64,000 nt of DNA from a virus (lineage: Duplodnaviria; Caudoviricetes): positions 6,237-70,236 of IMG/VR virus record IMGVR_UViG_2595698683_000001, one strand, 5' to 3'. The translations under genes and the position numbers were made by a program. The notes under the pieces were generated by a model. The model saw nothing but the letters and a program-made list of their open reading frames with translations, had not been told where the DNA came from and made no database searches. This document shows, in pieces, positions 10,010-63,850 of the stretch (positions are counted from its first letter, which is position 1; each line of letters starts with the position of its first letter).

Positions 10010-10070
10010 GGCGGGGCGGTCCCGCCTTGCTGATGTGAACACACTAGCCCGCCTTAGTCGGGTAAGTCAA
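10010..10070 (-). promoter_or_regulatory. Promoter/operator/leader-hairpin cassette, copy 1
   Basis: On - strand: TTGACT (10070-10065), 18-bp spacer, TAGTGT (10046-10041), hairpin 10010-10026; core reads CCTTAGT on +. Confidence 0.85.
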
Positions 10071-10109
10071 GATGACCGATACCGCACCGCCACCGGATAC
10101 CCTGGCGTC

Positions 10110-10850
10110 GTGGCTTTCACGTGGCCGGTCGACCGGTCTGAGTTCCCGGCGCTGCCGGACGAGGCCGACCCTGGCTATGCCCAGGCGGTGCTGGAGCAGC
10201 GTGCAGCGGCTGACCTGGCGGTGGCGGTGCTGTGGGCACTGACCGGGCGGCAGTTCGGATTGATGGACCTGATCGCCCGGCCGTGCCCCGAGTACCCCAC
10301 ATCTCGATACCGCATCACTGGCCAGGTCACCAGCTACGTCGTCAGCTGGGAAGGCGACAGGTGGATCAACCTGGGCTGTGGATGCAGTGGCGGCTGTCGG
10401 TACGGTGGCCCACGCGCTGTGCACCTGCCCGGCCCGGTCTACGCCGTGACCGAGGTCAAGCTGGCCGGGGCGGTGCTGGCCCCGGCCGGGTACCAGCTGG
10501 AGAACAACGTGCTGTACCGCGTCGGCGGCAACTGGCTGCATCAAGACCTTGGTCGGCCCCTGGGTGAGGCCCGCACCTGGAGCGTGACCTACCAGCGCGG
10601 CATCCCGGTGCCGGAGGCATTCGCGGCGCTGACCGGCCTGCTGGCCAAGGAGTTCTTGGACGCGCTCGACAACGAGGGCCGGTGCCGCCTGCCGCGCACC
10701 GTGACCACCGCCAGCCGCCAGGGCGTGACGTACAGGGCCTACGACCCGCAGGCCATCTATGCCAACGGCAAGACCGGCCTCCCCGAAATCGACCTGGTAC
10801 TGGCAGCGGTGAATCCTCACGCGCTGATGGCAGCGCCTACGGTGCTCTGA
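10110..10850 (+). CDS. Head-to-tail adaptor
   Basis: LWALTGRQFG and CRLPR..TTASRQGVT motifs; synteny. Confidence 0.7.
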   Translation: MAFTWPVDRSEFPALPDEADPGYAQAVLEQRAAADLAVAVLWALTGRQFGLMDLIARPCPEYPTSRYRITGQVTSYVVSWEGDRWINLGCGCSGGCRYGGPRAVHLPGPVYAVTEVKLAGAVLAPAGYQLENNVLYRVGGNWLHQDLGRPLGEARTWSVTYQRGIPVPEAFAALTGLLAKEFLDALDNEGRCRLPRTVTTASRQGVTYRAYDPQAIYANGKTGLPEIDLVLAAVNPHALMAAPTVL

Positions 10851-11380
10851 TGACGCAGCCCTGCCGCACCGACCCCGCCATGGAAGTCATCGGTGCCGTC
10901 ACCACCACGCTGACTGAGTTCTTCCGGCCAGACCAGGTGTGCCCGCCCATGGTCGGCAGCACCACCAACGTCCGCTTCTTCGCAGGAGACGGCGCGCCGC
11001 TGGCCGCGTGGGACAGCCACGTCAGCCAGGGCTGTGACGAGCCGTTCGTCTGGGTCCGCGCCCAGCGCCGCTACCGCAGCAAGACGTTTCCGAACCCCAC
11101 GGTGGAGGTCGGCAGCTGCTCGCTGCTCAAGGTGCTGCCGGTGGAGGTCGGCGTGGCCTGGTGCGCGGTGGTCGACCAGACGCCCCGGTGGTCCGACTAC
11201 GCCAAGGAGGCGGCGGTCAGCATGGACACCGCCTGGCGCATGGAAGAGGCCATGTGCGCCGCCGCGCGCCAGCTGTTGCGCGACGACAGCGAGCGCCTGG
11301 TGGGCAGTGACATCCTCAACCCGTATGGTCCAGAGGGCGGTGTCATTGCGTGGATCGGCACCCTGTACGCCAGCTACTGA
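10850..11380 (+). CDS. Probable tail terminator/connector protein
   Basis: TGATG coupling; C-terminal PYGPEGGVIAW; synteny. Confidence 0.55.
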   Translation: MTQPCRTDPAMEVIGAVTTTLTEFFRPDQVCPPMVGSTTNVRFFAGDGAPLAAWDSHVSQGCDEPFVWVRAQRRYRSKTFPNPTVEVGSCSLLKVLPVEVGVAWCAVVDQTPRWSDYAKEAAVSMDTAWRMEEAMCAAARQLLRDDSERLVGSDILNPYGPEGGVIAWIGTLYASY

Positions 11381-11406
11381 AATACTGATCTACGGAGGAG
11401 AACACC

Positions 11407-11766
11407 ATGGCCGGAGTGACAATCGAGGGCAGCCGCCTTTCGCCCAGCTCGTTCCTGGCGGCGGGTGAGCGCGTCACCGTGCAGCGCACCCCGCGTATCG
11501 ACCGGCTGATCGCTGCCGGGTTCGTTGTCGTGGTGGACGAACGCACCGACACCGAGCGCGAGGCCGACGAGCAGGCGGCGCAGTCGCGCGCCGACCTGAC
11601 CCCGTACACCCTGGACAACCCGCCCAAGCGCAACGCCAGCCGCGAGGACTGGTCCGAGTTCCTGGCCGCGCACAGCGAACTTGGCATCGTCACCGAGGGC
11701 AAGGACCGCGACGAGCTGATCGCCGCCTGGGACGCCTACCTGGCCGGGCGCGTCACGCAGGAGTAG
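11407..11766 (+). CDS. Hypothetical connector-region protein
   Basis: GGAGGAG RBS; C-terminal HeH-like motif ASREDW...RDELIAAW. Confidence 0.6.
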   Translation: MAGVTIEGSRLSPSSFLAAGERVTVQRTPRIDRLIAAGFVVVVDERTDTEREADEQAAQSRADLTPYTLDNPPKRNASREDWSEFLAAHSELGIVTEGKDRDELIAAWDAYLAGRVTQE

Positions 11767-11769
11767 CCC

Positions 11770-12183
11770 GTGCCGGTAACCGCGCGCATCCACATCAACG
11801 AGCCGGAACTGGAGCGCCAGACCGGCGCGATATTCCGTGGCAAGCACCGCAGCATCACGCGGCGCATTGCCAACCAGGCCCGCGCTGATGTGCCCGTGCG
11901 CACCGGCAACCTGGGGCGCGGCATCCAGGAAATGCCCCAGACGTACCGGCCGTATCACGTGGGCGGCGGCGTGGAGGACAACGTGGACTACGCCGCCCCA
12001 GTGCATGAGGGCAGCCGCCCGCACCGCATCACCGCCCGGCACGCCAACGCGCTGCACTTCTACTGGCACGGGCGCGAGGTGTTCCGCAAGAGCGTCTGGC
12101 ACCCCGGCGTCCGGCCCCGGCCGTTCCTGCGCAACGCGGCGCGGCGCGTGGTAGCTGCGGACCCCGACATCCACATGACGTGA
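11770..12183 (+). CDS. HK97 gp10-like tail completion protein
   Basis: PVRTGNL..GI, YA..VHEG and HPG..PRPFL motifs. Confidence 0.7.
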   Translation: MPVTARIHINEPELERQTGAIFRGKHRSITRRIANQARADVPVRTGNLGRGIQEMPQTYRPYHVGGGVEDNVDYAAPVHEGSRPHRITARHANALHFYWHGREVFRKSVWHPGVRPRPFLRNAARRVVAADPDIHMT

Positions 12184-12239
12184 CTATCCCGACATCGGTG
12201 GTAGTCTCGCGGCCGAACACCCAAGCCTCGGGAGGGCCA

Positions 12240-31252: not shown

Positions 31253-31432
31253 TTCTCGGTTGTCGCGGTAGCGCAGCCACGACCAGCCCCCGACCAGCGC
31301 CGCGCCTGCGGCGGCGCTGATGCCGGGGTGCGGGTTCGCAGCGAAGAACGACGCGGCAAGCAACAGCACACCTGTTCCACCCATGAGGGCGACAGTAACG
31401 GGTCGGCTGCACCGACGCGCGTGGCGCGTCAT
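31148..31432 (-). CDS. Small membrane protein
   Basis: TAATG-coupled to the HTH gene; 2 TM; 3' end overlaps the convergent gene by about 105 bp. Confidence 0.55.
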   Translation of the reverse strand: MTRHARRCSRPVTVALMGGTGVLLLAASFFAANPHPGISAAAGAALVGGWSWLRYRDNRELASVKVIQRRAEPSRAKELLGTFHDHPHRAVRGA

Positions 31433-31638
31433 TACCGACCGCCCCACCAGCCACGGCCGGGGCGCTCGGCGTGCCAAGCGTCGATGGTCTCCGGCAGCCA
31501 GCCCTTGTGACGGCCCACCTCCACATCATGCGGCGGCAGGTCGATACCGGACAAGCTGCGGACGGACTTCATGCCCAGGCGCTTGGCCACGTCCTGGCGG
31601 CTGAGGTACTTCTGCACCTTGCGTTCGGTGGTGGTCAC
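31432..31638 (-). CDS. HTH DNA-binding protein (AlpA/Xis-like)
   Basis: YLSRQDVAKRLGM...LP..D..VGR.KGWLPETIDAW. Confidence 0.8.
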   Translation of the reverse strand: MTTTERKVQKYLSRQDVAKRLGMKSVRSLSGIDLPPHDVEVGRHKGWLPETIDAWHAERPGRGWWGGR

Positions 31639-32081
31639 CTGACGCTCCTTTCACGGGCTGTGGAGTTCCCCGACATCGTAAGGTCAATACGCGGCAGCTT
31701 GGGGTCACCGGCAACGATGACGGCGGCGCGTCCGGCCACCAGACGCTCCCATTCCCACTGACCGCCCGCCTCCACAGCAATGTTCACGTGGCGGTCGGGG
31801 TCGGCCTCGGCAGCCTCGATCACGCGGGCAACGTGGTCATCGAACTCGTCAACCAGGTTCTCCACGGCGGTGAGCATTCCCGGCGGGCACTTGTCCGCGC
31901 CGCTCTCGATGCGCTGGTAATCGCGCCGGGGCTTGCCCAGCTTGAGCGCCATGCTGCGCTGGTCCAGGCCGATGTAGAGGCGGAAGTTCCTGATCAGCTC
32001 GCCCAGCCCGTAGGTGTGCTCCGTGGGCTGCGGCATGGCCATATCGGCGTCGGTGGTGATCGACGCTACTGACTGATGCAC
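31635..32081 (-). CDS. XRE-family HTH DNA-binding protein
   Basis: IRNFRLYIGLDQRSMALKLG..RRDYQRIESG; GAAAGGA RBS before GTG 32081. Confidence 0.75.
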   Translation of the reverse strand: MHQSVASITTDADMAMPQPTEHTYGLGELIRNFRLYIGLDQRSMALKLGKPRRDYQRIESGADKCPPGMLTAVENLVDEFDDHVARVIEAAEADPDRHVNIAVEAGGQWEWERLVAGRAAVIVAGDPKLPRIDLTMSGNSTARERSVR

Positions 32082-32151: not shown

Positions 32152-32886
32152 TCACCATCCGGCCTTGGCGGCGCAGACGGGGCCGATGCCGCGTGCGCGG
32201 CTTTCGTCGTTGGTGAGCTGGCGACCGCAGATACCGCACTCGCCAATCTCGTGGCCGTAGCGGGCGCTGGCTGCCTCGGCACCGACGGCGGCGATGCGGA
32301 CCAGGATCGCCCGGCCCTGCTTCATGCTCAGCTTCTGCTCGTCGCTGCCGATGATCTGCTTGACGAACACGTAGCCCGCCCAGCGGCCTGTCTCGGGGCG
32401 GTCGACCTTGTAGAACGCGGTGCCGTTGACGGCGTGCACCTGCGTGTCGATGGCGTAGCGCCCGGCGGGCACCTCGACCGTGGCGTCCTCGTAGCGACGG
32501 TCGTCAATGCGCACGTTGACCTTGGTGGGCAGGCCCTTGAGCCAGCTGATCAGGTTGGTTGCGCCGTGCTTGTAGAGCGGTGCCCAGGCGTAGGCGTGCT
32601 CCCGGCCGATGCCGTCGGCACCGTGGCCCAGAACCTGGTTCAGGCGCTCGCCCAGGGTGGCGGCGGTGGCCACGTCCTCCAGGTTGGCGGCGAAGAACCG
32701 CGCCTCGTCGGTGAGGATGTCAAGCATGGTGGCCAGGGTGGCTACGCGGCTGACGAACTTGTCCTGGCCCTGCACGCTGGACCAGTCGCGGGCGCGGATC
32801 AGGTCTTGGATGAACGACAGCTGGTTCTCGGTGGCCGGGGCGGTGATGGTGCTGGCCGGGGCGGTGGTGGCGAACGGTGAACCCAT
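32152..32886 (-). CDS. DUF6011-type zinc-ribbon protein
   Basis: C-terminal CGICGRQLTNDESRARGIGPVC; AAGGAG RBS. Confidence 0.7.
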   Translation of the reverse strand: MGSPFATTAPASTITAPATENQLSFIQDLIRARDWSSVQGQDKFVSRVATLATMLDILTDEARFFAANLEDVATAATLGERLNQVLGHGADGIGREHAYAWAPLYKHGATNLISWLKGLPTKVNVRIDDRRYEDATVEVPAGRYAIDTQVHAVNGTAFYKVDRPETGRWAGYVFVKQIIGSDEQKLSMKQGRAILVRIAAVGAEAASARYGHEIGECGICGRQLTNDESRARGIGPVCAAKAGW

Positions 32887-32907: not shown

Positions 32908-32968
32908 GGCGGGGCTGTCCCGCCTGGCTGATAGGTACACACTAACCCGCCTTAGTCGGGTAAGTCAA
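32908..32968 (-). promoter_or_regulatory. Promoter cassette copy 2, with an adjacent second operator at 32970-32984
   Basis: TTGACT-N18-TAGTGT, core CCTTAGT, hairpin 32908-32924. Confidence 0.85.
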
Positions 32969-39827: not shown

Positions 39828-39923
39828 GTGTTGGCTTTCGTGTGGTTGTGGTGCTGGTGAAGTGTGGTGTGGTGGTAGTCGCCCGGCCCCACGTGGCAGG
39901 CCATGGGGCCGCGCGACTCACCT

Positions 39924-39953
39924 AAACTAACCCGACTATTGCGGGTAAGTCAA
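39924..39953 (-). promoter_or_regulatory. Variant promoter cassette for the helicase operon (no leader hairpin)
   Basis: TTGACT-N18-TAGTTT; ACCCG-ACTATTG-CGGGT. Confidence 0.75.
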
Positions 39954-48874: not shown

Positions 48875-48933
48875 GGCGGGGCGGTCCCGCCGTGGTAATG
48901 AAGGTTATAGCTTATTGATCACGCCGCTCGCAA
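48875..48933 (-). promoter_or_regulatory. Promoter with the shared leader hairpin but a different spacer
   Basis: TTGCGA-N18-TATAAC; hairpin 48875-48891 identical to cassette copies. Confidence 0.6.
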
Positions 48934-49259: not shown

Positions 49260-49288
49260 AGACTAGCCCGCCCTTGTCGGGTATCACA
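49260..49288 (-). promoter_or_regulatory. Degenerate promoter/operator copy
   Basis: GACTAGCCCG-CCCTTGT-CGGGTA on +; -10 TAGTCT on -. Confidence 0.6.
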
Positions 49289-49626
49289 GCCCCTCGCGTG
49301 CGCGCGCGTACACGCACGTGCGCGCGGGCGCGTCAGCGTACCGGATCGCACCCCATTTTGTCAAATTGGAGGGCAACTACTTGCCACGGACTTGACTACC
49401 CCGTTAGGCTGCGGCCGAGGGCAGCGCAGCACTACGGGGATAGTCCAGCCCCTACGGCCACGAAAATCAGATTCATCATCCTACTTCTGAGTAGGGTCAC
49501 GTCCGGCTCCGCGTCCAGGGCGCAGCCACGGGGCACACCCCGCCCTCACTCTGCTGGGCGGGCTGCCCCTGGCCTCGCCGGTGACCATCTAGCGCAGCAG
49601 GTCAATTTAGGGTTAGTGTGAAACCT

Positions 49627-53777: not shown

Positions 53778-53992
53778 CCGACGTGCACGTCATCGACAAG
53801 CGCGCCCAGCGTGCGATGGATGCGCAGCTGACCGAACACCTGCGCATCGCCCGGCGCAACCAAATCGCCGCCAACGTGCGCCAGCTGGCCGGGTCGCTGT
53901 GGTGGCAGGGTGCCGCCGGGGGCAACCCCGAGGCGTTCGACACCCGAGCCGACCTGCTGGCCCAGGCCCGCGCCGAGGGCTTGGACGTATGA
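53774..53992 (+). CDS. Hypothetical protein
   Basis: GTGA and ATGA overlaps. Confidence 0.6.
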   Translation: MTDVHVIDKRAQRAMDAQLTEHLRIARRNQIAANVRQLAGSLWWQGAAGGNPEAFDTRADLLAQARAEGLDV

Positions 53993-54588: not shown

Positions 54589-54746
54589 GCGTCGGCGTAG
54601 CCGTGCTGGCGGGCAACGCGGCGGTCGCGGCGGTGGGAGCGCACCTTGATGGCCTTCTTCGCGCCCGCGCGGTACTCCAGGGCGTGGCGGCTGTAACGGC
54701 CGAAGGCGTCACGCTCGTCTGCGGTGGTGGGGTGCTCAGCGCGCAT
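54585..54746 (-). CDS. 53-aa basic protein (absent from the ORF track)
   Basis: GAAAGG RBS; MRAEHPTT...KKAIKVRSHRRDRRVARQHGYADA; own promoter cassette. Confidence 0.7.
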   Translation of the reverse strand: MRAEHPTTADERDAFGRYSRHALEYRAGAKKAIKVRSHRRDRRVARQHGYADA

Positions 54747-54766
54747 GATGTTTACCTTTCAGTGGT

Positions 54767-54827
54767 GGCGGGGCTGTCCCGCCGGGCTGGTGTGAACACA
54801 CTAACCCGCCTTAGTCGGGTAAGTCAA
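54767..54827 (-). promoter_or_regulatory. Promoter cassette copy 3
   Basis: TTGACT-N18-TAGTGT, core CCTTAGT, hairpin 54767-54783. Confidence 0.85.
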
Positions 54828-54858
54828 GATGACCACCGCATGGGCGTAGGGTCGGGGC

Positions 54859-55167
54859 ATGGCCAAGGCACGCAAGGGCTCCAGGCGTGGCGGTGCACTG
54901 CGCGGGGGCCGGTCCAAAATCGCACGTAGCAGGGGTCGCGGCACGGTCGCACTGCACGCCCAGGCGGGCGGCATCGCCACGTTCGCCAAGGGCGGCGGGG
55001 GCGGTTATCGCGGCTTCAAGTCCAAGAAGCAATGGCGCTGGGCCTGGGCGAACCATAAGCCCTGGGCGCGCAAGAAGTCGCACGAAACGGCCGGTGGCCC
55101 CAAGGTGCGCTATCGCCGCCTCCCGGCCAGCAAGCACAGCGGGCACAAGGGTGCACGCACTGGCTAA
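54859..55167 (+). CDS. Highly basic K/R/G-rich protein
   Basis: 102 aa with a single acidic residue; FKSKKQWRWAWA motif. Confidence 0.7.
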   Translation: MAKARKGSRRGGALRGGRSKIARSRGRGTVALHAQAGGIATFAKGGGGGYRGFKSKKQWRWAWANHKPWARKKSHETAGGPKVRYRRLPASKHSGHKGARTG

Positions 55168-55202
55168 GTTCTGATAACCCGGTTATCAGGTGCCGCCAGC
55201 GG

Positions 55203-55703
55203 TTACCCCAGCGCCCCGAGCGCACTGGCCAGGAACACCAGCACCAGCACCGCAGTGAGGGCCACATAGCCCGCCTGCCGCCAGCTGGCCCACGGCCAGG
55301 CCACCACCTCGGGTTCGGCCGTTGCCCACGCTGGCGGGCACCACAGCGCCGCTGTGCCGACACCCTGGCCCAGGCACACCCGGCACCGGTACGTGTCAAC
55401 CAGCCAGCGCATGTCGTGCCGGTAGCGGCACTGGCCGCACCCCTGGCACCAGTCGGCGCTCCCGTCCAGGCACGTCTGGACGCCGGGCTCCACCACGGGC
55501 TTGCCGACCACGGTGCCGTCGTGGGCCAGGCGGGGCGCTGGCTGCGCCACCAGCGGCGTGAACGCAAACCCGTCGGGCACCTGGCGCACGGTGCCGCCAC
55601 CGTGGTCGTGCATGGCCTGCACCGCCGCGCCCAGGCGCTCGAACTGCCGGTCCTGGTCGCGGAAGCCCTTCGCGGCCACGCGGGGCACTCGTCCACCCAT
55701 CAC
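55203..55703 (-). CDS. Hypothetical protein with Cys motifs and C-terminal TM
   Basis: GGAGG RBS; C..C pairs. Confidence 0.5.
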   Translation of the reverse strand: MMGGRVPRVAAKGFRDQDRQFERLGAAVQAMHDHGGGTVRQVPDGFAFTPLVAQPAPRLAHDGTVVGKPVVEPGVQTCLDGSADWCQGCGQCRYRHDMRWLVDTYRCRVCLGQGVGTAALWCPPAWATAEPEVVAWPWASWRQAGYVALTAVLVLVFLASALGALG

Positions 55704-56086
55704 CACACCTCCAGGGGTACGTCGCAGTCGTCGGCGTGCTGGGCCAGGTAATGCGCGCCGCACGTCTTGCAATGGTCTGTGTCGTCGTAGGGGTCGGTGG
55801 CGGCGCGCAGCGCGGCGGTCATCCGCGCACCCTGGCGGCAGCTGCACCCTGGGCAGTGCGGACCCCGTATGTTGCTGCGCCGGTACGTGCCGCCCTCGCT
55901 GCCCGGCACCAGGCGGTCGGCAATCACCTCGTCCTCGGTGACCAACCGGCCGCACTCCCAGCAGGGCACTTTCACCCCGTCGCCGCCGAACCCGGCCTCG
56001 GGGCTCACCAGCCACTTGCGCCGGGCGCGCCGGTCATAGCTGCTGCCGCGCTCATTGCGGTTGCTGCGCCCGCAGATGCTGCTCAC
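55700..56086 (-). CDS. HNH endonuclease-like protein
   Basis: CWECG...ADRLVPGSEGG.Y...NIR..HCPGC; degenerate catalytic residues. Confidence 0.65.
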   Translation of the reverse strand: MSSICGRSNRNERGSSYDRRARRKWLVSPEAGFGGDGVKVPCWECGRLVTEDEVIADRLVPGSEGGTYRRSNIRGPHCPGCSCRQGARMTAALRAATDPYDDTDHCKTCGAHYLAQHADDCDVPLEVW

Positions 56087-56225
56087 TTGGTCACCACGCT
56101 GGGCGGATCGAACACCAGCCGCCACCGGTCACCGACCCAGAGCAGGATCCACCAGTGCCGCAGCTGATGTCGGTCACCGTCGAACAGGCGCTCCACGTCG
56201 GCGCGGCTGGGCACGCCGCTGCCGG

Positions 56226-56504
56226 TCACGTGATGCAGCCTGCATCACGCGCGGCAATCTCGGCCAGCGTCATATCCAGGTTGAACCTGGGGAAGCCTGG
56301 GCGGTGCTTGCCGGGGCCGGTCTGGTCCTTGATCATCAGCACCCACTGGTCACCGGTCGACCGCACGCGCATGGACAGTCGGGCATGGCGACCCTCCTGG
56401 GGCCGGGGCATCACCTCGGCGCGCGTGGGTAGACCGATGGCCACGCCGTGGCGCAGCTCCAGGGTGCGGATGGCGGCGTATTGCCGTTCACCGAGGCTGG
56501 GCAT
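56226..56504 (-). CDS. Hypothetical protein
   Basis: GAGGAGG RBS. Confidence 0.55.
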   Translation of the reverse strand: MPSLGERQYAAIRTLELRHGVAIGLPTRAEVMPRPQEGRHARLSMRVRSTGDQWVLMIKDQTGPGKHRPGFPRFNLDMTLAEIAARDAGCIT

Positions 56505-56652
56505 GGTCGGCCTCCTCACGCTCGCAGTCGTCCAGAATCGCGGTGATGCGGTTCAGCGGCACCACCAGGGCGCTGCCGTATTCGGCGCACAGTTCGCGGA
56601 TGCGCGCCATGGCCAGGCGCTCCGGCGTCAGCGCAAACGGGTCGGTGATCAT
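56488..56652 (-). CDS. Hypothetical protein
   Basis: AGGAG RBS, ATGA overlap. Confidence 0.5.
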   Translation of the reverse strand: MITDPFALTPERLAMARIRELCAEYGSALVVPLNRITAILDDCEREEADHAQPR

Positions 56653-56894
56653 GGGCACTCCTGGCCTGGTCGATGGACAAGATGGCATTGCGCGCAGATA
56701 ACCTCCCGCGCGCCCACGGTCAGCTCGGCCAGGTCCAGGGCGTCGGCGCTGCCGGGGCCACGCCCGTCGTCCCACGGGTCGGGGAAGTCGGCCTCCGGCC
56801 CGCAGCCCAGGCCGGGCAGGCAGCTGGAGCAGCCCAGGGCCTCGCTGTGCGCGTTGTGGCCGCACTTGCGACAGATCACCTTGGGCCGGGTCAT
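56649..56894 (-). CDS. Cys/His-rich small protein
   Basis: CRKCGH, CSSC, CAQCH. Confidence 0.6.
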   Translation of the reverse strand: MTRPKVICRKCGHNAHSEALGCSSCLPGLGCGPEADFPDPWDDGRGPGSADALDLAELTVGAREVICAQCHLVHRPGQECP

Positions 56895-57049
56895 GGCCGG
56901 TCATCCCATCCGTTGCGCTTGCCGCCGATCAGGCACGGTTCGCCCGCCGTATTGGTGTGCTCGGCGAAGCAGCGCTTGCCCTCGTCGTCGCGCACCACGT
57001 CAACCGTCTTGGTGCATACCGGGCACCAGTAGGTGCCGTCGGCGGTCAC
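56891..57049 (-). CDS. 52-aa Cys-containing protein
   Basis: GTGA and ATGA overlaps; CPVC...H...C. Confidence 0.5.
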   Translation of the reverse strand: MTADGTYWCPVCTKTVDVVRDDEGKRCFAEHTNTAGEPCLIGGKRNGWDDRP

Positions 57050-57537
57050 CGCGTCCTCACTACGGCCGTCACGGTGCTGCCGGGCTGGAAGTGCTCACGC
57101 CAGCCGTAGAACTCCAGCAGTGCCCCGATGTCGTCCAGCACCACGAAGCGGTCACTGGCCAGGCCGACGCGCACGTTGCCGACCAGCGGCCGGTCCAGCG
57201 TGGTCTCGGCCAGGGTCACGTGGTCGCGGTGGCAGGGCCTCCACGGTGCCCACCATGGGCGCGCACCCATGGCGGCGACCAGCGCCACCATGGTCTCGCC
57301 GGGGCTTACCTCGGTGGCCGGGTCCAGCAGGGCCGGGGCGGTGGCCATGGCCTGGGCGCGGTGCTGGGCCTGGCGGTGCAGCAGCCACACCCGCAGGATG
57401 AACCCCAGTGCCACGCCCAGCGCGGCGTCCCGCCAGCTGAACTGCCAGCCCAGTGCGGCGTCTGTCATCCAGGCCAGCAGCCCGGCAATGGGGACCACCA
57501 CCAGCCACCAGAACAGCCAGTCCTTCACGGATGCCAC
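57046..57537 (-). CDS. Membrane protein
   Basis: Two N-terminal TM segments. Confidence 0.6.
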   Translation of the reverse strand: MASVKDWLFWWLVVVPIAGLLAWMTDAALGWQFSWRDAALGVALGFILRVWLLHRQAQHRAQAMATAPALLDPATEVSPGETMVALVAAMGARPWWAPWRPCHRDHVTLAETTLDRPLVGNVRVGLASDRFVVLDDIGALLEFYGWREHFQPGSTVTAVVRTR

Positions 57538-57674
57538 GGCTCGGCCCCCGTTCCGGTGCTGACGTTGTGCGTGAAGCACCAGCCGTACCGCTGGCGGCAG
57601 TCCGGCCCGCACGGGTAGCCGCCCATCAGCTGCACCAGCCTGGCCAGCTCGCGGTTCGTCATGTCGGCGTCCAT
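57525..57674 (-). CDS. Hypothetical protein
   Basis: GGAGG RBS, TGATG coupling. Confidence 0.5.
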   Translation of the reverse strand: MDADMTNRELARLVQLMGGYPCGPDCRQRYGWCFTHNVSTGTGAEPWHP

Positions 57675-58003
57675 CAGTTGCCCTCCAGCTTGGCGCGCAG
57701 TGCGGCCAGGTCGGCGTCGTCCAGCGGCGGCACGATGGGCGGCAGGATCAGGGGCATTCCCGCGTCGTGCGTGTTGCACCAGACCGCGACCGGCTCATCG
57801 GCCCCGCTGTAGTCGAACATCAGGCGGCAGCCCAGCTGAGCGTGGACACCGACCTCGGGGTTCATGTTGGGCAGCCAGCCGTTCGGCGGTGCTGCCTCGG
57901 TCTCCCGGTGGGTGAGCAGCTGGGCGATGTCCTCCAGGGCCTGGACGGCGCGCTTGGCCAGCGTCATGGCGTCACGGGTCGGGCCGGGCAGCAGGTTAAC
58001 CAT
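57674..58003 (-). CDS. Hypothetical protein
   Basis: GAAAGGA RBS. Confidence 0.6.
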   Translation of the reverse strand: MVNLLPGPTRDAMTLAKRAVQALEDIAQLLTHRETEAAPPNGWLPNMNPEVGVHAQLGCRLMFDYSGADEPVAVWCNTHDAGMPLILPPIVPPLDDADLAALRAKLEGN

Positions 58004-58259
58004 GGTTGGGGCGTCCTTTCGACGTGAGGGGTAGGCCAGCCCGCCGGAGCGTGGCGATGGCGTTCTTGAGGCTGCGCACGTCGCTGGGCGTGCTGGGGAA
58101 CACGGTGGTCAGCACCCCGTCGATGTACACCTTGTGGTGCCCTCGGTGGGATTTGACCTCGCCGCCCACCGCGATGATGGAGCTGACGAGTGCGCGTACC
58201 TCGGGGTGCGTCCCGCCTGCGCGTTTGCGCCCGCAGCCGGGTATCGGTTGGTTGGCCAC
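57996..58259 (-). CDS. HicA-like toxin-fold protein
   Basis: GHHKV...V.PSTPSD.RSLKNAIATLRRAG; AAGGAGG RBS. Confidence 0.65.
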   Translation of the reverse strand: MANQPIPGCGRKRAGGTHPEVRALVSSIIAVGGEVKSHRGHHKVYIDGVLTTVFPSTPSDVRSLKNAIATLRRAGLPLTSKGRPNHG

Positions 58260-58276
58260 GCGGGCCTCCTTTCGGT

Positions 58277-58301
58277 GGTGGGCCGGGCCTTCCGGCCCAC
58301 C
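58277..58301. terminator. 10-bp intergenic stem-loop
   Basis: GGTGGGCCGG-N5-CCGGCCCACC. Confidence 0.5.
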
Positions 58302-58310
58302 GAGTAGGTC

Positions 58311-58595
58311 TTACTCGTTGACGGCGTTCATCCAGGTGATGGCCCGCATGGCGTCGGCGGCGCTGGCACCACCCTCACCCGTGCCCACGATCACGATGCG
58401 CTCGACGCGCCCGTTGTGGACGTAGGTACCGCGCAGCACCATGTCGAACTGGAGGTCATCCAGCGTGATGGTGCGGTGCAGCGCCTCGGCCACGCGCAGC
58501 ATGGAATCCATCGACTCGGCGGGGTCGGTGGACTCGATGTCCACCTGCGTGCCGCGTGAGGTGAGGATCGAGAAGGTGAGGGGCTTGCTGAGCAT
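58311..58595 (-). CDS. Hypothetical protein
   Basis: AAGGAG RBS directly after a cassette. Confidence 0.7.
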   Translation of the reverse strand: MLSKPLTFSILTSRGTQVDIESTDPAESMDSMLRVAEALHRTITLDDLQFDMVLRGTYVHNGRVERIVIVGTGEGGASAADAMRAITWMNAVNE

Positions 58596-58617
58596 TGCTG
58601 GCTCCTTGGGTCGCGGC

Positions 58618-58678
58618 GGCGGGGCTGTCCCGCCTGGCTGATGTATGAACACTAACCCGACTAAGGCGGGTAAGTCAA
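58618..58678 (-). promoter_or_regulatory. Promoter cassette copy 4 (inverted core)
   Basis: TTGACT-N18-TAGTGT, core ACTAAGG on +, hairpin 58618-58634. Confidence 0.85.
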
Positions 58679-58848
58679 GAGCTTCTACCAGCGAAAATAG
58701 ATGGATCAACGGCGTGACGGCGCACCATGCCGTCGGCACGCTCGGCCCAGTGCTTACCGCACACCGCGCAGTAAGCATGACCCCGAAAGGTGCGGGCCGG
58801 GGCCTTGCCAGACCCCGGACACCGCACCCGATCAGTTGCGCCCGGCAT
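58675..58848 (-). CDS. Small Cys-containing protein
   Basis: CPGSG...CAVCG...H. Confidence 0.5.
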   Translation of the reverse strand: MPGATDRVRCPGSGKAPARTFRGHAYCAVCGKHWAERADGMVRRHAVDPSIFAGRSS

Positions 58849-59020
58849 TCCATGCAGCAGGCAGAAACCCGCCACCGACGATCCACGTGTGCAGGCCCAT
58901 GAAGCGCTCGGCCAGCGCTGTCGCGTCCTGCCCCAGGTTGTCGGGGTAGGTGTCGGCCTCGTCGTTGAGCACGGCGTTCGCGTAGTCGATCAGCTCAGCC
59001 AGGGCGGCGTTCGGGTCCAT
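58832..59020 (-). CDS. Hypothetical protein
   Basis: GGAGG RBS; MDPNAAL...GGFLP.AW. Confidence 0.65.
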   Translation of the reverse strand: MDPNAALAELIDYANAVLNDEADTYPDNLGQDATALAERFMGLHTWIVGGGFLPAAWNAGRN

Positions 59021-59229
59021 CAGGACACCTCCACCCACTGCATGACGACCTGGAGAGCGGCGTCGTAGCTGTCGGCGTCGGTGACCTCGTTGACGAACTG
59101 CGTCACCTCGGCCACGTGCCCGGCCGCACGCAGCGCCTTGCTGACCTTGCCGATGATGAAGAACACGTTGCCGTCCTGGCCGGTGAGCTGCACGTGCACA
59201 TCGGGAAACTTGGGTGCGGTACCGGCCAT
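59020..59229 (-). CDS. Hypothetical protein
   Basis: LTGQDGNVF.IIG.V..AL motif; TGATG coupling. Confidence 0.7.
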   Translation of the reverse strand: MAGTAPKFPDVHVQLTGQDGNVFFIIGKVSKALRAAGHVAEVTQFVNEVTDADSYDAALQVVMQWVEVS

Positions 59230-59852
59230 CAGTAGCCGCCCTCGCGCTCGCGGCCAAACGGGCTACCGGGGCCGAAAACCACGCCACCGGCCGCAAACCC
59301 TCCGCGCCCGCCGCCACCGGCCCCACCGTGGGCCTGGGGCACCTCTGCGCGGACCAGCGGGTCGACCACGCTGCCGGGGCTGTAGCTGCCCAGCACCCGG
59401 CCGTAGGCACCCATGCGTTCGGCAACCGGGGCCTCGTCGTCGGGCATCGGCCCGAGCAGCTCGCTTTCGGTCATCAGGTGCAAGCTCGGCCAGTTGGCCT
59501 CACCGATGAACTGGAGCAGGCCAGCCCAGTTCATCCGGTCAGTGTTCTGGCCCGTGACGGTCCAGCGCACCGCGCCGCCGACGCGCCAACCAACAGCGGC
59601 GTAGGCGTACTCCCGACCAGCCTGGTACTTGGTGAACGCCACCACGGCACGGTCACCCGCACCGCCCAGCGCGGGCTGCTTGGGCTTGCGGGCCTCTCGG
59701 CGCGCCAGCTCGGCCTCGGCCACGGCACGGTCAACCTGGCTGGCCTGCTCCAGCAGCTGCGCCGCCTGGGAGCGCAGTGCTGCCGCCGACATCAGCTGGG
59801 ACGGCAGCGACGGCTCCACGGTGGCCTTCTCGCCTTCGTTGTCGTTGGACAT
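59229..59852 (-). CDS. Hypothetical protein
   Basis: AAGGAGG RBS plus CACAACCAC. Confidence 0.7.
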   Translation of the reverse strand: MSNDNEGEKATVEPSLPSQLMSAAALRSQAAQLLEQASQVDRAVAEAELARREARKPKQPALGGAGDRAVVAFTKYQAGREYAYAAVGWRVGGAVRWTVTGQNTDRMNWAGLLQFIGEANWPSLHLMTESELLGPMPDDEAPVAERMGAYGRVLGSYSPGSVVDPLVRAEVPQAHGGAGGGGRGGFAAGGVVFGPGSPFGREREGGY

Positions 59853-59881
59853 GGGTGTTCCTCCTTGGTGGTTGTGGTGGT

Positions 59882-60106
59882 TTACGGGGCCTCGTCAGCC
59901 GGGCCGGAGCCGTAGCTGCTGGGGTGCTTGGCGTCCTTGCAGCGGCTGTTCTTGCCCGCCATGCCGATGCCGTGCTTGGCGTTCACGAACGCGGGGTTCA
60001 TGCACGCTTGGTCGTAGACGGGGTACTGGCCGGTCTCGGCGCTGGCGGTCGCGGCACCGAACAGGGCCATGCCTGCGGTGAGTGCGGCGGCGATCAGGTA
60101 CTTCAT
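59882..60106 (-). CDS. Small secreted protein
   Basis: Signal peptide MKYLIAAAL...ASA-E; AAGGAGG RBS. Confidence 0.7.
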   Translation of the reverse strand: MKYLIAAALTAGMALFGAATASAETGQYPVYDQACMNPAFVNAKHGIGMAGKNSRCKDAKHPSSYGSGPADEAP

Positions 60107-60208
60107 GGTGGTTCCTCCTTGGTTGTGGTGGTTGGGTACTGCGTTGGTTGGGGGTGCCGGGCGGGCGCACGGTGGGAGCACCACCACCACCGCCCGGCAC
60201 CGGTCTAA

Positions 60209-61261
60209 CTACACCGGCAGCAAGGCGCTGAACGCCTTGGCCTTCATGTTGCCGATGTCGCTGCTCATCAGGGTGCGCTGGGCGCGGCGAATGGCTGCCT
60301 CCTCGCCCTCGGCACCGGTCACGGGGCGGTGGTGGTCCAGGTACTCGGTCACCGCGTTGTACACCCCGAACGCCGTGCCACGGAACGGGGCCACGGTGTC
60401 GGCGGTGCGGTACAGGTCGACCACCTCGGCGGCGCGCAGCTTGCGGCTCTCGGCCTGCTTCTCGGTGGTGGCACCGGGCACGTTCCAGATGTCCTCCAGC
60501 ACCTCCAGCACCTGCACCGGGTTCATCTCCCGCTTGATCAGCAGTTCGCACTGCTCCACGAACGTGTCGCGGTAAGCGAAGGTCAGGCCCAGCAGCTGGC
60601 GCACCTCGGCCAGGCGCTTGTCCGGCTCGCCCGTGTGGCGCAGGCTCACGCAGCTGCGGGCGGCGTGCTCGGCCATCCGCTGCGTGTTGGCGCACACGAT
60701 GCGCACCGGGCTGATGATGGCCCGCAGCGCGTCCTCGCCCGTGTGGTTGTTCAGGATGCTGATGTACAGGTCGGTGATGTCCAGCTCCCCGGTCACGGGG
60801 CTGCGGAACTCCATATGGGCGGGCATCTTCATCGTGACGAAGGTGTCCCGGCCACCGCGCAGCGCGCCGATGGTCTCGATGTGCGCGCCGCCCTCGTCCA
60901 CGATCTGGCTGAGCAGCGCGGTGGTCTGCTCGTTCTGGAACGGGGTCCAGCGGTTGCCGACCACGCCCAGGGCCTCGGTGCCGCCGTTGACCGGGTTCGT
61001 GCGGACCACCACGTGGCGGTCAGGCACCGGCAGGCTGATCGTTGCGCCCTCTTCGCCGGACTGGTCGGGCACCTCGGCCGTCAGCGGCACCTTGCGCACG
61101 TCCCAGCCGCGCATGTGGGCGGCGTCCAGGGCCTCGTCGGTGGTCATCAGATGGCCGACCGGGGTGCCAAGCTTATGCCAGGCGTCCACCAGCCCGTTGG
61201 CGTCGGTGCGGCTGTCGGCAAAGCTGGTGATGCCGTCGGTGGTATCGAGTTCGTGGGCCAT
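60209..61261 (-). CDS. DUF932/TIGR03299-family protein
   Basis: MAHEL...AWHKLG, QNE, G.LRGGR, PVRIVCANT, RHT, GTAFG.YNAVTEY.DH. Confidence 0.8.
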   Translation of the reverse strand: MAHELDTTDGITSFADSRTDANGLVDAWHKLGTPVGHLMTTDEALDAAHMRGWDVRKVPLTAEVPDQSGEEGATISLPVPDRHVVVRTNPVNGGTEALGVVGNRWTPFQNEQTTALLSQIVDEGGAHIETIGALRGGRDTFVTMKMPAHMEFRSPVTGELDITDLYISILNNHTGEDALRAIISPVRIVCANTQRMAEHAARSCVSLRHTGEPDKRLAEVRQLLGLTFAYRDTFVEQCELLIKREMNPVQVLEVLEDIWNVPGATTEKQAESRKLRAAEVVDLYRTADTVAPFRGTAFGVYNAVTEYLDHHRPVTGAEGEEAAIRRAQRTLMSSDIGNMKAKAFSALLPV

Positions 61262-61285
61262 GGTGTTGCTCCTTTGTTGGTGGGT

Positions 61286-61345
61286 GGCGGGGCGGTCCCG
61301 CCTGCTGATGTGAACACAGTAACCCGACTAAGGCGGGTAAGTCAA
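61286..61345 (-). promoter_or_regulatory. Promoter cassette copy 5 (inverted core)
   Basis: TTGACT-N18-TACTGT, core ACTAAGG, hairpin 61286-61302. Confidence 0.85.
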
Positions 61346-61367
61346 GCGCTTCTAGCAGGCAATTTAG

Positions 61368-61523
61368 TCAGAAACTGCCCATCAGGTAGCCCACCGGGAT
61401 GGCCAGCGCGCACGTCACCGTGAGCACCGCGCACACCAGCTCGGTCATGCTGTCCCGCCGGGAGAAGTGCAGGCCCACGCTGGCCAGCAGGCTGACCGCC
61501 ACCAGGACCAGCGGGCCGGTCAC
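61368..61523 (-). CDS. 51-aa membrane protein (absent from the ORF track)
   Basis: GTGA overlap, AGGAGG RBS, two hydrophobic segments. Confidence 0.55.
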   Translation of the reverse strand: MTGPLVLVAVSLLASVGLHFSRRDSMTELVCAVLTVTCALAIPVGYLMGSF

Positions 61524-61855
61524 CAGGGGCCTCCTGCCGCCAGGTTGAACCAGGTCTCCCGGCGCTGCTCGGGCGTCGGCTCGGGCTCCAGCACGGCAAT
61601 GGTGTTCTCCCCAATCAGCACGTACCAGGGCACCGGGTCCGGCCCGTTGTCGACCATGGCGGCGAACAGCCCGCCATCGGTGGCGCGGTACACCGCCTCG
61701 GCACGCTCACGGCGCGTATCAGCGGCCAGCTGCGCCGCCCAGGCGATGTGCGCGGCGTCCTGGGCCAGGGCCTCGGCCTTGCGCCGCTGGCGCGCCCTAC
61801 GGCCGAACAGCCCGCAGGCCGGGCACCATACGGCGTGTTCCACGTGAAACTTCAC
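61520..61855 (-). CDS. Hypothetical protein
   Basis: GTGA overlap; WCPACG. Confidence 0.55.
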   Translation of the reverse strand: MKFHVEHAVWCPACGLFGRRARQRRKAEALAQDAAHIAWAAQLAADTRRERAEAVYRATDGGLFAAMVDNGPDPVPWYVLIGENTIAVLEPEPTPEQRRETWFNLAAGGPW

Positions 61856-62208
61856 GGCATAACCACCTTGAACTCGTTGCGGAGCAGACACTGGCGCTTG
61901 CCCCTGGGCTTGACGAGGCAGTACAGCGGGGTGCCGTCTGCCGTGGTGGTGATCATGCTGACGCGGCACCGCAGGCCCGCGTACTCGGCAACATCGTTGA
62001 CCACCGGCACCACCGTGTACGCATCGCTGATGTCGATCAGCCGGGCGTGGGCGGCGCGCTGGCACGCCTGCTGGGCTTCGGCCTTGGTGCCGCATACGGC
62101 GGTGAAGTCCGGCCCGCTGGCTGTCCAGATCGGTCGGTGCGTGTCCAGGCTCAGGATGGCGTAGGGGCCTGCGGTGTAGTGCCCCGGCCGCACACGCGCC
62201 CACTTCAT
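61852..62208 (-). CDS. Hypothetical protein
   Basis: ATGA overlap. Confidence 0.6.
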   Translation of the reverse strand: MKWARVRPGHYTAGPYAILSLDTHRPIWTASGPDFTAVCGTKAEAQQACQRAAHARLIDISDAYTVVPVVNDVAEYAGLRCRVSMITTTADGTPLYCLVKPRGKRQCLLRNEFKVVMP

Positions 62209-62342
62209 GCGGGCACCTGCTTGGGGAACATCGCCAGGGTGGCCTGGTCACCGCCGACGCGGTAGATCATCCCCAGCGCGCAGTCCACGATCACCGTTTC
62301 CGGCGAGTACGGGCCTTCGTCTGCGAGGTAGTGCATGGTCAT
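62205..62342 (-). CDS. 45-aa hypothetical protein
   Basis: ATGA overlaps at both ends. Confidence 0.5.
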   Translation of the reverse strand: MTMHYLADEGPYSPETVIVDCALGMIYRVGGDQATLAMFPKQVPA

Positions 62343-62578
62343 GCTCCCTTCTGGGCGGCGCGGGCCACGCGGTGGATGTGCCACCAGGCGGCGTTCTCGT
62401 TCAGCTCAAAGTCGACAATGCGGCTGGCCAGTGCCCACTGGGCGTCCTCCCCATCCAGGTGGTTCTCCAGGGTGCTGGTGATGCCCTGGCCCACCGGGCA
62501 GGCAGGCTCGTGGTCGTTGACATACCCGGCGCAGCTGTCGCAGCTGGGAGGTTCGGTGATGTCGGCGGGGTCGTACAT
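62339..62578 (-). CDS. Hypothetical protein
   Basis: GAGGAGG RBS; CDSC...H...CP. Confidence 0.6.
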   Translation of the reverse strand: MYDPADITEPPSCDSCAGYVNDHEPACPVGQGITSTLENHLDGEDAQWALASRIVDFELNENAAWWHIHRVARAAQKGA

Positions 62579-62583
62579 GGCGG

Positions 62584-62913
62584 CTATGCCTCCTCGGACT
62601 GGATGCGGGCGATGGCTGCGGCGGCGTCCTTGGCGCTGGGCACCGACCGCACGTAGATGATGGAGCTGCCCGGCGACAAGTCGACCTGATAACCGATGGC
62701 GATCATGTCGTCGGCCAGCAGCTTGGCCTTGCGGACGTTGGCGCTGTCCAGGTCGCTGACGCTAACCCAGACGTTGGCCGGGATGCTGCGCCCGTTGCCC
62801 CGGTGCACGGAGTAACCGGCCCGGTGGATCGGTTGCGTGATGATGCCGAAGTCGCGGCGCAGCGCCCGGCTGACGACCGGTGCTGCGGGGAACGGGCTGG
62901 CGGGCTTGGACAT
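62584..62913 (-). CDS. Hypothetical protein
   Basis: AGGAGG RBS directly after a cassette. Confidence 0.7.
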   Translation of the reverse strand: MSKPASPFPAAPVVSRALRRDFGIITQPIHRAGYSVHRGNGRSIPANVWVSVSDLDSANVRKAKLLADDMIAIGYQVDLSPGSSIIYVRSVPSAKDAAAAIARIQSEEA

Positions 62914-62934
62914 TGCGGGCCTCCTGGTAGCGGT

Positions 62935-62995
62935 GGCGGGGCGGTCCCGCCTGGCTGATATGAGCACACTAACCCGACTAAGGCGGGTAAGTCAA
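62935..62995 (-). promoter_or_regulatory. Promoter cassette copy 6 (inverted core)
   Basis: TTGACT-N18-TAGTGT, core ACTAAGG, hairpin 62935-62951. Confidence 0.85.
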
Positions 62996-63047
62996 GACCT
63001 TGGCAGGGCCAGGACCAGGCAATTTGCCCGGCCCCGGCCCTGGAGGC

Positions 63048-63764
63048 TTACGCCTCGTCCTTGGCGGCAGCCTTGCGGACGGCGCGGCGCTCGCGGCGCT
63101 TGGCCAGCCGCTCGGCCTTGGCGTCGGCGGTCTCGTTGGCGCGCTTGGCTGCCCGGCGGGCGGCGCGGCGGGCCTTGCGGACAGCCACCTTGTCGGCGTC
63201 GGCAACCTCGGCCTCGACCTGCTCGATGGTGGCGTCGGCCTCGGGCTCGACCTCGGTGGTGTCCAGGTCAGCCAGGGCCTCCTCCAGCTCGCCCTCGGGG
63301 TCGGCAGCCTCGACCGGCTGGGGCTCAGGGTCGGCGGCAACCTCGGGGAACTCAGCCAGGATGTCGGCCACTGCGTCGGCTGCGTTGTCGTAGACCGTGA
63401 CGTTGGCCTTGACATGCTTGCCCTTCTTGGCTTTCGGCGCGTTCTTGGCCTCGATCAGCGCGTTGATGGCCTCCTCCTGCCAGCCGTCGTCAGCCGAGAA
63501 GTCACCGACCTCGACCACACCCTGAACGCTGGTGGGCACGGCCGGAACGACCTCGGCACGGTAGCCGTGCTCGGCGAAGTATGCGCCGGTCTTGCCGCTG
63601 CCCGCCTTCGCGGCGGCGGCTGCGCTCTTGTGCCAGCTGTACGGACCCCAGCTGGTGCCGTCCTCGTTGCCGGTCATCAGGACGTGGGTGTAGGCCATCG
63701 ACCCCGTGGTGCGGGTGAAGGTGTCGCCGTTGGGGGCGGTGGCGGTGAAGGTGACAGTGGCCAT
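63048..63764 (-). CDS. Hypothetical protein with acidic linker and basic C-terminal tail
   Basis: AAGGAG RBS after a cassette. Confidence 0.75.
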   Translation of the reverse strand: MATVTFTATAPNGDTFTRTTGSMAYTHVLMTGNEDGTSWGPYSWHKSAAAAAKAGSGKTGAYFAEHGYRAEVVPAVPTSVQGVVEVGDFSADDGWQEEAINALIEAKNAPKAKKGKHVKANVTVYDNAADAVADILAEFPEVAADPEPQPVEAADPEGELEEALADLDTTEVEPEADATIEQVEAEVADADKVAVRKARRAARRAAKRANETADAKAERLAKRRERRAVRKAAAKDEA

Positions 63765-63789
63765 TTTGGGGCTCCTTGCGGTTGTGCGT

Positions 63790-63850
63790 AGCGGGGCGGT
63801 CCCGCTGTGCTGATGTGAACACACTAACCCGCCTTAGTCGGGTAAGTCAA
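63790..63850 (-). promoter_or_regulatory. Promoter cassette copy 7
   Basis: TTGACT-N18-TAGTGT, core CCTTAGT, hairpin 63790-63806 with a compensatory A-T outer pair. Confidence 0.85.

Follow-up and report, generated by a model that had tools for sequence, protein, structure and literature searches.

T4-type phages carry dispersed units of an early promoter and a stem-loop (PeSL) that lie in direct orientation beside small accessory genes, with the stem-loop upstream of the promoter, and MerR-family promoters are distinguished by an overlong spacer of 19-20 bp. In mycobacteria, TANNNT serves as the rule for the -10 hexamer. Early lytic promoters of mycobacteriophages are frequently SigA-like according to a review (PMC9262239), which in its section on cluster A describes many operators and stoperators per genome, one class of them lying over an early SigA-like promoter, with a specificity that varies among relatives. 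A report on cluster O gives 8-9 predicted SigA promoters and a 17-bp dyad, TGTTCGG-N3-CCGAACA, repeated more than 30 times (PMC4351075), and a moron has been defined, in the passage drawn on here, as an insert of promoter, gene and terminator (PMC3029335). The same review ranks cluster B, with more than 350 isolates, among the largest mycobacteriophage groups (PMC9262239). Here, we describe a repeated cassette of predicted promoter, spacer dyad and leader hairpin in a phage of this cluster, found in a window of 64,000 nucleotides that comprises bases 6237-70236 (plus strand) of the 70,236-bp virus record IMGVR_UViG_2595698683_000001.

Repeated promoter cassettes of the leftward genes

Chance does not account for the repeated copies. 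The pattern TTGACTTA-CCCG-N7-CGGG-TTAGTGT occurs eight times in the whole 70,236-bp genome, each time on the minus strand. Seven of these copies had been listed in a first-pass annotation of the window, and all were recovered where it had placed them, in intervals bounded by the initial T of TTGACT and the final base of the hairpin. The 30-mer TTGACTTACCCGACTAAGGCGGGTTAGTGT had six matches at up to 3 mismatches against none in 100 dinucleotide shuffles. With up to 2 mismatches, TTGACTTACCCG-N7-CGGGNTAGTGT matched eight sites on the minus strand and none on the plus strand of the whole genome, where the same pattern written backwards also had no match. A looser pattern, TTGAC-N(17-20)-TA...T, searched on both strands, gave nine matches. 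All were minus-strand sites with 18 bp between the hexamers, and eight contained CCCG-N7-CGGG. The seven canonical copies share 70-91% identity over 66 nt, with a mean of 82%, which rises to 92% for the first 30 nt alone.

The -35 hexamer is TTGACT in all eight copies and fits TTGACA at five of six positions, and the spacer, which reads TA-CCCG-N7-CGGG-T, is 18 bp throughout. The -10 hexamer is TAGTGT except for one TAGTTT and one TACTGT, the latter in the copy ending at 61345, as had been noted earlier, and all eight fit TANNNT. The SigA-type anatomy proposed in the first-pass annotation is supported, and the repeats are most likely predicted promoters of the host SigA type, probably early, fused to a standard 5' leader. 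Within the promoter, ACTTACCCG-N7-CGGGTTAGT forms a dyad of about 25 bp, with 9-bp arms and one mismatch, that takes in the 3' half of the -35 hexamer on one side and the 5' half of the -10 hexamer on the other. Folded as RNA, this dyad was weak and unexceptional (z -0.3 to -2.7), which rules out a stable RNA hairpin at this place.

All eight copies precede and point at a gene, and the -35 hexamer and the start codon are 81-86 nt apart in the seven canonical copies, within a unit of about 85 bases. Each cassette stands upstream of a ribosome-binding site and a non-structural gene, in agreement with the earlier description. In this genome, each leftward unit starts with a cassette or a cassette derivative, and no rightward unit of the window does. 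It is very likely, from their anatomy and conservation, that the cassettes open each leftward non-structural unit and define a co-regulated, probably early gene set. Among sequencing runs searched for the phage, no RNA run was listed, and the wastewater-metagenome contigs that were listed contained at most 0.19 of its words.

The stretch 30000-34873 of the window is 92.7% identical to Mycobacterium phage Cooper, and the nearest relatives are the subcluster B4 (Coopervirus) phages of M. smegmatis. By its sequence, the source phage is a lytic, Cooper-like mycobacteriophage (subcluster B4, Bclasvirinae). The gene order is that of Cooper: rightward packaging, structural and lysis genes come first, with a leftward operon of three or four genes between the tail and lysis genes, and are followed by the replication genes, which run leftward, by small genes in a rightward block and, at the right end, by a long block of leftward genes, which the cassettes at 58678, 61345, 62995 and 63850 split into four units. 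The operon headed by copy 2 encodes, in order, the 244-aa DUF6011 protein, a 148-aa helix-turn-helix (HTH) protein, a 68-aa DNA-binding protein and a 95-aa protein; both DNA-binding genes, identified by their PHROG matches (phrog_955 and phrog_597), do lie in this operon, as previously claimed. Cassette 3 (39953) drives the helicase gene and the genes downstream. The coordinates of these features are collected in Table 1.

Three further sites had been regarded as partial copies. That at 39924 has the full promoter and palindrome with another leader, but the description suits the other two, one of which (48875) retains only the hairpin, while the other (near 49267) is degenerate. The hairpin-only copy lies upstream of the gene 48579-48848 and the replication genes, and the degenerate copy, CCCGACAAGGGCGGG, precedes the 95-aa DUF7423 gene 48966-49253. 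A second promoter-like site, TTGACAAAATGGGGTGCGATCCGGTACGCT (49364-49335, minus strand), was observed in the divergent region 49290-49620 between the leftward and rightward blocks. This site lacks the CCCG-N7-CGGG palindrome, and stretches of alternating CGCGCGCACG-type sequence come after it; Cooper, Zemanar, Vincenzo, PG1 and Rosebush have similar sites.

Table 1. Positions in the window of the cassettes, their derivatives and associated genes.
Feature	Position	Strand	Description
Gene of cassette 1	9701..9988	-	95 aa, DUF7185; lone leftward gene in the rightward structural operon; position of Cooper gp19
Cassette 1	10010..10070	-	TTGACT 10070-10065; core ACTAAGG; TAGTGT 10046-10041; leader hairpin 10026-10010
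68-aa DNA-binding protein	31432..31638	-	phrog_597; MerR/excisionase-type winged-helix likeness, weak scores; best, though tentative, candidate
148-aa HTH protein	31635..32081	-	phrog_955; Pfam HTH_31 below cut-off; weaker candidate regulator
First gene of cassette-2 operon	32152..32886	-	244 aa, C-terminal DUF6011, phrog_636
Cassette 2	32908..32968	-	core ACTAAGG; hairpin 32924-32908
Long leader hairpin of helicase promoter	39870..39923	-	followed by C/A-rich stretch to helicase start codon at 39827
Cassette 3, helicase type	39924..39953	-	TTGACTTACCCG-CAATAGT-CGGGTTAGTTT; -10 TAGTTT; usual promoter and dyad, different leader
Hairpin-only copy	48875..48933	-	hairpin GGCGGGACCGCCCCGCC 48891-48875 behind TTGCGA-18-TATAAC
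Degenerate copy	49260..49290 (~49267)	-	TGTGATA-CCCGACAAGGGCGGG-CTAGTCT; -10-like TAGTCT, no TTGAC -35
Moron-like module	54536-54833	-	cassette 4, 53-aa gene 54585-54746 (phrog_16066) and terminator-like hairpin 54573-54543
Cassette 4	54767..54827	-	core ACTAAGG; drives the lone 53-aa gene
Cassette 5	58618..58678	-	flipped core CCTTAGT; drives 94-aa gene 58311-58595
Cassette 6	61286..61345	-	flipped core CCTTAGT; -10 TACTGT; drives 350-aa DUF932 gene 60209-61261
Cassette 7	62935..62995	-	flipped core CCTTAGT; drives 109-aa gene 62584-62913
Cassette 8, rightmost	63790..63850	-	core ACTAAGG; drives 238-aa gene 63048-63764

Dyad core, relatives and candidate binding proteins

A profile of the seven copies detected full cassettes in syntenic positions of the Cooper, Zemanar and Vincenzo genomes. 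A direct promoter scan counted 7 copies in Cooper, 8 in Zemanar, 10 in Vincenzo and 10 in KayaCho, and the B1 phage PG1 had 9 in the 50-kb part examined. One of the Vincenzo copies is on the plus strand, upstream of a plus-strand gene, which shows that the cassette follows the gene and not the strand; the earlier term leftward regulon is thus apt for this genome but not in general. Two promoter forms were found, CGGG-T-TAGTGT with an 18-bp spacer, as in this phage, and CGGG-TAACTT/TAAGTT with a 17-bp spacer. In the latter form, present in KayaCho, Vincenzo and PG1, the dyad TTACCCG/CGGGTAA is perfect, and KayaCho and Vincenzo carry both forms. The CCG-N7-CGG dyad is retained in the B5 phage Donny, Imvubu and Thonko. 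The B3 phage Phlyer has a different, perfect 8-bp dyad, ACAATACC-N9-GGTATTGT, at the equivalent place, spanning the -35 flank and the -10, and the B2 phage Rosebush has nine repeats with GAGACAA-...-TAATGT/TATTGT promoters and a non-consensus -35. Judged by these sequences, the cassette design extends over B1, B4, B5 and KayaCho-type phages, and B2 and B3 combine other dyads with the same hairpin.

The N7 core between the arms is ACTAAGG in four copies of this phage and its exact reverse complement, CCTTAGT, in three, a feature that the first-pass annotation did not contain. The same core occurs in both forms in Cooper and Zemanar. Vincenzo has ACATAGG/CCTATGT and ACTTAGG/CCTAAGT, and KayaCho has ACTGACT/AGTCAGT and ACTCACT/AGTGAGT, each in both orientations. 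The family ACWWAGG is maintained across B1, B4, B5 and Imvubu. When orientation was disregarded, the distance between cores was 0.94 within genomes and 2.33 between genomes, compared with 4.55 for shuffled 7-mers. At the rightmost promoter, ACTAAGG in this phage corresponds to CCTTAGT in Cooper within an otherwise identical 30-mer, and Zemanar has the cores of its gp19 and gp43 promoters in the opposite orientation to those of this phage.

A palindrome of this kind also stands alone, just 5' of the small-terminase gene. It reads CCCGACTAGGGCGGG and is located at genome positions 1759-1773 (plus strand), within 1745-1795 and about 4.4 kb left of the window; it adjoins TATCTG and has neither a consensus -35 nor a leader hairpin. 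A palindrome with a core of the cassette family is found upstream of the small-terminase gene in all five genomes compared (this phage, Cooper, Zemanar, Vincenzo and KayaCho). Their cores are ACTAGGG, CCTATGT and, in KayaCho, the KayaCho-type AGTCAGT, and that of Zemanar is flipped. The palindrome adjoins a -10-like hexamer in this phage, Vincenzo and KayaCho, and in Cooper and Zemanar a -10-like TATCCT lies 8 bp downstream of it.

Outside the window, a gene for a DpdA-like queuine tRNA-ribosyltransferase was observed at genome positions 740-1753 (plus strand). Bclasvirinae reportedly modify their DNA with 7-deazaguanine, the share being about 28% of dG in Rosebush (PMC10484667). If this phage is also modified in this way, proteins may read the G-rich palindromes in modified form.

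Two HTH genes had been put forward as the obvious autoregulatory candidates, which is overstated, since only the 68-aa protein tracks the core. This protein is unusually well conserved. Among phages that share the core family, its identity was 97-99% in B4, 92% in Vincenzo and 87% in PG1; it was 63% in KayaCho, whose core differs, and 58% in Rosebush. The helicase, primase-polymerase and Pol I rank oppositely, with identities of 65/62/65% in PG1 and 72/70/76% in KayaCho. At two loci with the exact CCTTAGT core, identity was 79-82% for the 68-aa protein and 47-52% for the 148-aa protein, and the latter value equals that at loci with different cores. Over 15 related loci, core distance correlated with identity at rho -0.81 for the 68-aa protein, against -0.70 for the 148-aa protein and -0.53 for the first gene. 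The differences between KayaCho-type and other 68-aa proteins cluster at residues 31-45, a segment that covers the last part of the second helix, the loop behind it and the two strands. The structural model of the 68-aa protein (pLDDT 73.1) is nearest to the DNA-binding domains of RacA, MerR-family proteins, excisionase and BldC. From sequence comparison and the model, this putative winged-helix protein (31432-31638) is the best candidate for a dyad-binding factor, a lead that we regard as tentative and rather unlikely to be right as it stands.

Leader hairpin

The leader is about 40 nt long. Its 5' part is a 6-bp hairpin of G+C pairs, GGCGGG-N5-CCCGCC, that begins 14 nt 3' of the -10 hexamer, lies within the leader and is carried by seven of the eight copies; a Shine-Dalgarno site and the start codon follow. 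In cassette 8 the stem is AGCGGG..CCCGCT, with a compensatory closing pair. The hairpin is part of the minimum-energy fold of all eight leaders examined, and it is the most conserved part of the cassette, being also present in B2, B3 and B5 phages, Imvubu, Thonko and the Gordonia phage Wooper.

The alignment comprised 66 distinct copies, taken from phages of B1, B2, B4 and the KayaCho type and from metagenomic phages; 96.5% of its cells pair, and none of 500 shuffles matched its covariation score. The closing pair is GC in 47 copies, AU in 6, GU in 5 and other in 8. Six of the eight compensatory cells lie in this pair and the other two in the loop-proximal pair. The loop is mostly 5 nt and ranges from 2 to 6 nt. 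The G-U pairs, one A-C case and the varied loop lengths fit better with an RNA hairpin on the transcribed strand than with a protein site in duplex DNA, and the near-invariant stem suggests that something may also read its sequence.

The hairpin was also considered as an intrinsic terminator. There is no U tract 3' of it, the sequence there being C/A/G-rich, and a terminator scan of 48000-64000 listed none of the five leader hairpins in that range; the lack of a U tract rules this function out. A known RNA family was ruled out by the Rfam search, which gave no match at the gathering score over the whole window. In Wooper, outside the mycobacteriophages, the first gene, the HTH gene and the 68-aa gene still form an operon between the tail and lysis genes, with the leader hairpin AGCGGG-ATGGA-CCCGCT ahead of it.

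The helicase promoter differs in its leader of 99 nt (39828-39923, minus strand, for the hairpin and the C/A-rich tract after it), which folds at -41.4 kcal/mol (z -4.36). KayaCho and Vincenzo have hairpins of differing sequence at this position, which suggests structural conservation.

Explanations and comparison with known systems

Taken together, these results on balance probably reflect modular expression cassettes, in which promoter, dyad, leader hairpin, Shine-Dalgarno site and start codon are placed at fixed distance; this is the reading that we favour from the sequence comparisons. A near-consensus SigA promoter (TTGACT, 18-bp spacer, TAGTGT) would start each leftward non-structural unit, and a phage-encoded protein on the dyad would cover both hexamers and shut the gene set off jointly. 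The binding factor would be the 68-aa protein, expressed from the copy-2 operon, and, more speculatively, one factor might act at both the early set and the small-terminase palindrome. The hairpin would act in the RNA as an element of 5'-leader stability, processing or recognition. We consider an RNA-level role of this kind for the hairpin likely from its pairing pattern, and the dyad has about an even chance of being the operator of a phage-encoded DNA-binding protein. Some support for protein binding in the spacer comes from the comparisons: the dyad embraces both hexamers, the core is genome-specific but occurs in either orientation, and the palindrome stands alone at the terminase gene. 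It is improbable that one MerR/excisionase-like protein of 68 aa both turns the early genes off and helps to turn the late genes on, in a switch like that of phi29 p4. That protein would have to recognize an asymmetric core in either orientation, within a palindrome around every early -35 and -10, and the late genes would be reached through the palindrome that, with no -35, adjoins the -10 ahead of the terminase gene. If this were true, the subclusters would have diverged into specificity groups in which protein and core evolve together, like the immunity groups of temperate phages.

Several results weigh against regulation through these elements. The -10 hexamers TAGTGT, TACTGT and TAGTTT agree with TATAAT at just three of six positions, and an E. 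coli-type promoter scan of 48000-64000 accordingly gave no promoters. The z-scores of leader folding (-0.3 to -2.3) do not stand out, which is usual in G+C-rich RNA. Covariation is thin, since four of the six hairpin pairs show no compensatory change and two of those are invariant. For the 68-aa protein, no Pfam match rose above the cut-off, MerR included, and the best Foldseek E-value of its model was 0.29, so that no hit reached 0.001. The correlation of its identity with core distance ignores phylogeny among loci that are related and not independent. To our knowledge, no repressor is known for cluster B phages. Finally, whole cassettes, including the loop and the initial transcribed sequence, are uniform within genomes and differ between genomes, so gene conversion alone could yield genome-specific cores and flips with no need of a protein.

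The core data fit two readings, a co-evolving, orientation-tolerant factor that binds duplex DNA, or concerted evolution with small inversions between the arms. The genome-specific loops and initial transcribed sequences favour the latter, and the former is favoured by the terminase palindrome and by the way in which different dyads recur at the same promoter position. Carried to its end, concerted evolution would leave simple cassettes of a strong promoter and a leader, controlled by no dedicated trans factor, in which palindrome and core are by-products of gene conversion or copying, flips arise by small inversions between the arms and any shut-off depends on a general anti-sigma or RNA-polymerase-directed mechanism. 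We hold this to be rather unlikely. It draws on the homogenization of the -10 type, the hairpin loop and the initial transcribed sequence, and not of the core alone, within a genome; on the flip at the rightmost promoter of Cooper, which alters just 3 asymmetric positions and could result from a short conversion tract or hairpin-mediated inversion; and on Rosebush, which has the hairpin and gene order despite a quite different spacer. However, it leaves unexplained the different dyads that recur around the -35 and -10 across subclusters, the persistence of ACWWAGG across B1, B4, B5 and Imvubu, and the core-matched terminase palindrome in five of five genomes.

Compared with the favoured expression cassettes, it is very unlikely that the repeats are chiefly recombination modules, like T4 PeSL units or moron borders, that exchange accessory genes and for which expression is secondary. 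The first-pass annotation had suggested that the cassettes, as direct repeats, could let accessory modules be deleted, duplicated or exchanged, and one module fits this: 54536-54833, of 297 bp here against 12 bp at the same place in Cooper, lies between two rightward genes, and its terminal hairpin (54573-54543) has 13 pairs and a T-rich tail. In Zemanar and Vincenzo, a cassette and a small leftward gene were observed at this place, and the 53-aa gene aligns with neither. In addition, relatives have other genes directly 3' of cassettes 5 and 7, Vincenzo homology stops at the -35 of cassette 8, and five of the eight cassettes touch at least one homology break. Overall, however, gene shuffling at the cassettes is weakly supported. 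A gap edge lay within 30 bp of a cassette for 11 of 65 gaps, compared with 7 of 73 junctions in a crude null of GC3-based gene junctions, so these counts are only indicative, and the gaps recur between comparisons and are not independent. Gaps at cassette edges are trivially expected because a conserved island adjoins variable genes, most breaks are at ordinary gene boundaries, and the fixed distance from promoter to start codon suggests expression as the selected function. It is likewise improbable that the leader hairpin itself serves as a regulatory site, such as a nut- or put-like antitermination or pause element or the target of an RNA-binding protein or nuclease, or that the palindromes are read-through insulators. 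GGCGGG/CCCGCC is almost invariant where promoters differ, and in a Gordonia phage as well, which exceeds what base pairing needs, and the lysis operon of mycobacteriophage Ms6 reportedly depends on a leader-RNA termination signal (Garcia 2002). Against this stand the missing U tract and Rfam family, the weak fold of the spacer dyad as RNA and the status of the presumed nuclease. The gene 52357-52950 (plus strand; phrog_645) is named 'Rnase E', as it is annotated in relatives, and had no Pfam match at E 0.01 here, so this name looks unsupported.

In the literature searched, we found no account of the cassettes or of gene control in cluster B, although subscription reviews or supplements may hold one. 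No paper contained TTGACTTACCCG, and six more motif strings gave unrelated matches only. A preprint on B1 phages (10.1101/2023.05.30.542743) reports at least 10 top-scoring predicted SigA-like promoters among the reverse-strand genes of the right end, and its available text mentions neither a palindrome nor a hairpin. The Vic9 paper nowhere uses the words promoter, transcription, hairpin, RNA-seq or terminator. As read from these genomes, the placement of the hexamers inside a dyad, the genome-specific and flippable core, the terminase palindrome and the reach over subclusters are additions to the first-pass annotation. The cassettes provide a testable map of cluster B transcription units, and the flipped cores, two -10 types, hairpin-only and palindrome-only copies are natural variants for the dissection of mycobacterial promoters, operators and leaders. 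If the dyad is an operator, a lytic actinophage would have a global switch for its early genes. If it is not, the cassettes would still be compact, portable expression units, probably of use to geneticists working on mycobacteria, and would clearly illustrate how regulatory DNA evolves in concert within one phage genome.

Among known systems, the T4 PeSL units resemble the cassettes in being dispersed, near-identical promoter and stem-loop units in direct orientation by accessory genes. The parallel drawn in the first-pass annotation nevertheless breaks down on layout, since the cassette hairpin follows the promoter, as part of the 5' leader, and lacks a U tract; moreover, the promoter is inside a dyad and the evidence of shuffling is weak. 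The stoperators of cluster A, as far as the review describes them, are similar in that many short sites, some of them overlapping a SigA-like promoter, differ in specificity between related phages. However, stoperators are asymmetric sites of 13-14 bp in one orientation to transcription, lie mostly off promoters and serve a lysogenic repressor, whereas the cassette site is a dyad with its core both ways (four against three) in a phage of lytic gene content. The dyad was found just in promoter spacers, apart from one degenerate copy and the terminase site, and so falls outside the definition of a stoperator.

In cluster O, going by the sections available, SigA-like promoters likewise divide a leftward right arm, a lone leftward gene lies in the structural operon and the dyad has a variable centre, but that dyad is apart from the promoters, whereas the cassette dyad lies within the spacer and is followed by a conserved leader hairpin. 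MerR-family promoters share a dyad between and overlapping the hexamers, and the model of the 68-aa protein is weakly nearest to MerR, RacA and excisionase; they differ in that the cassette spacer is 17-18 bp and the candidate has no coiled-coil dimerization and sensor part and no Pfam MerR match. Finally, the module 54536-54833, in which a cassette, the 53-aa gene and a terminator-like hairpin are set against rightward flanking genes, is a moron by definition and the sole cassette module of this kind; most cassettes instead head conserved multi-gene operons. Thus, the cassette misses a defining feature of each comparator, the one moron module excepted, and would function like other phage early-promoter sets.

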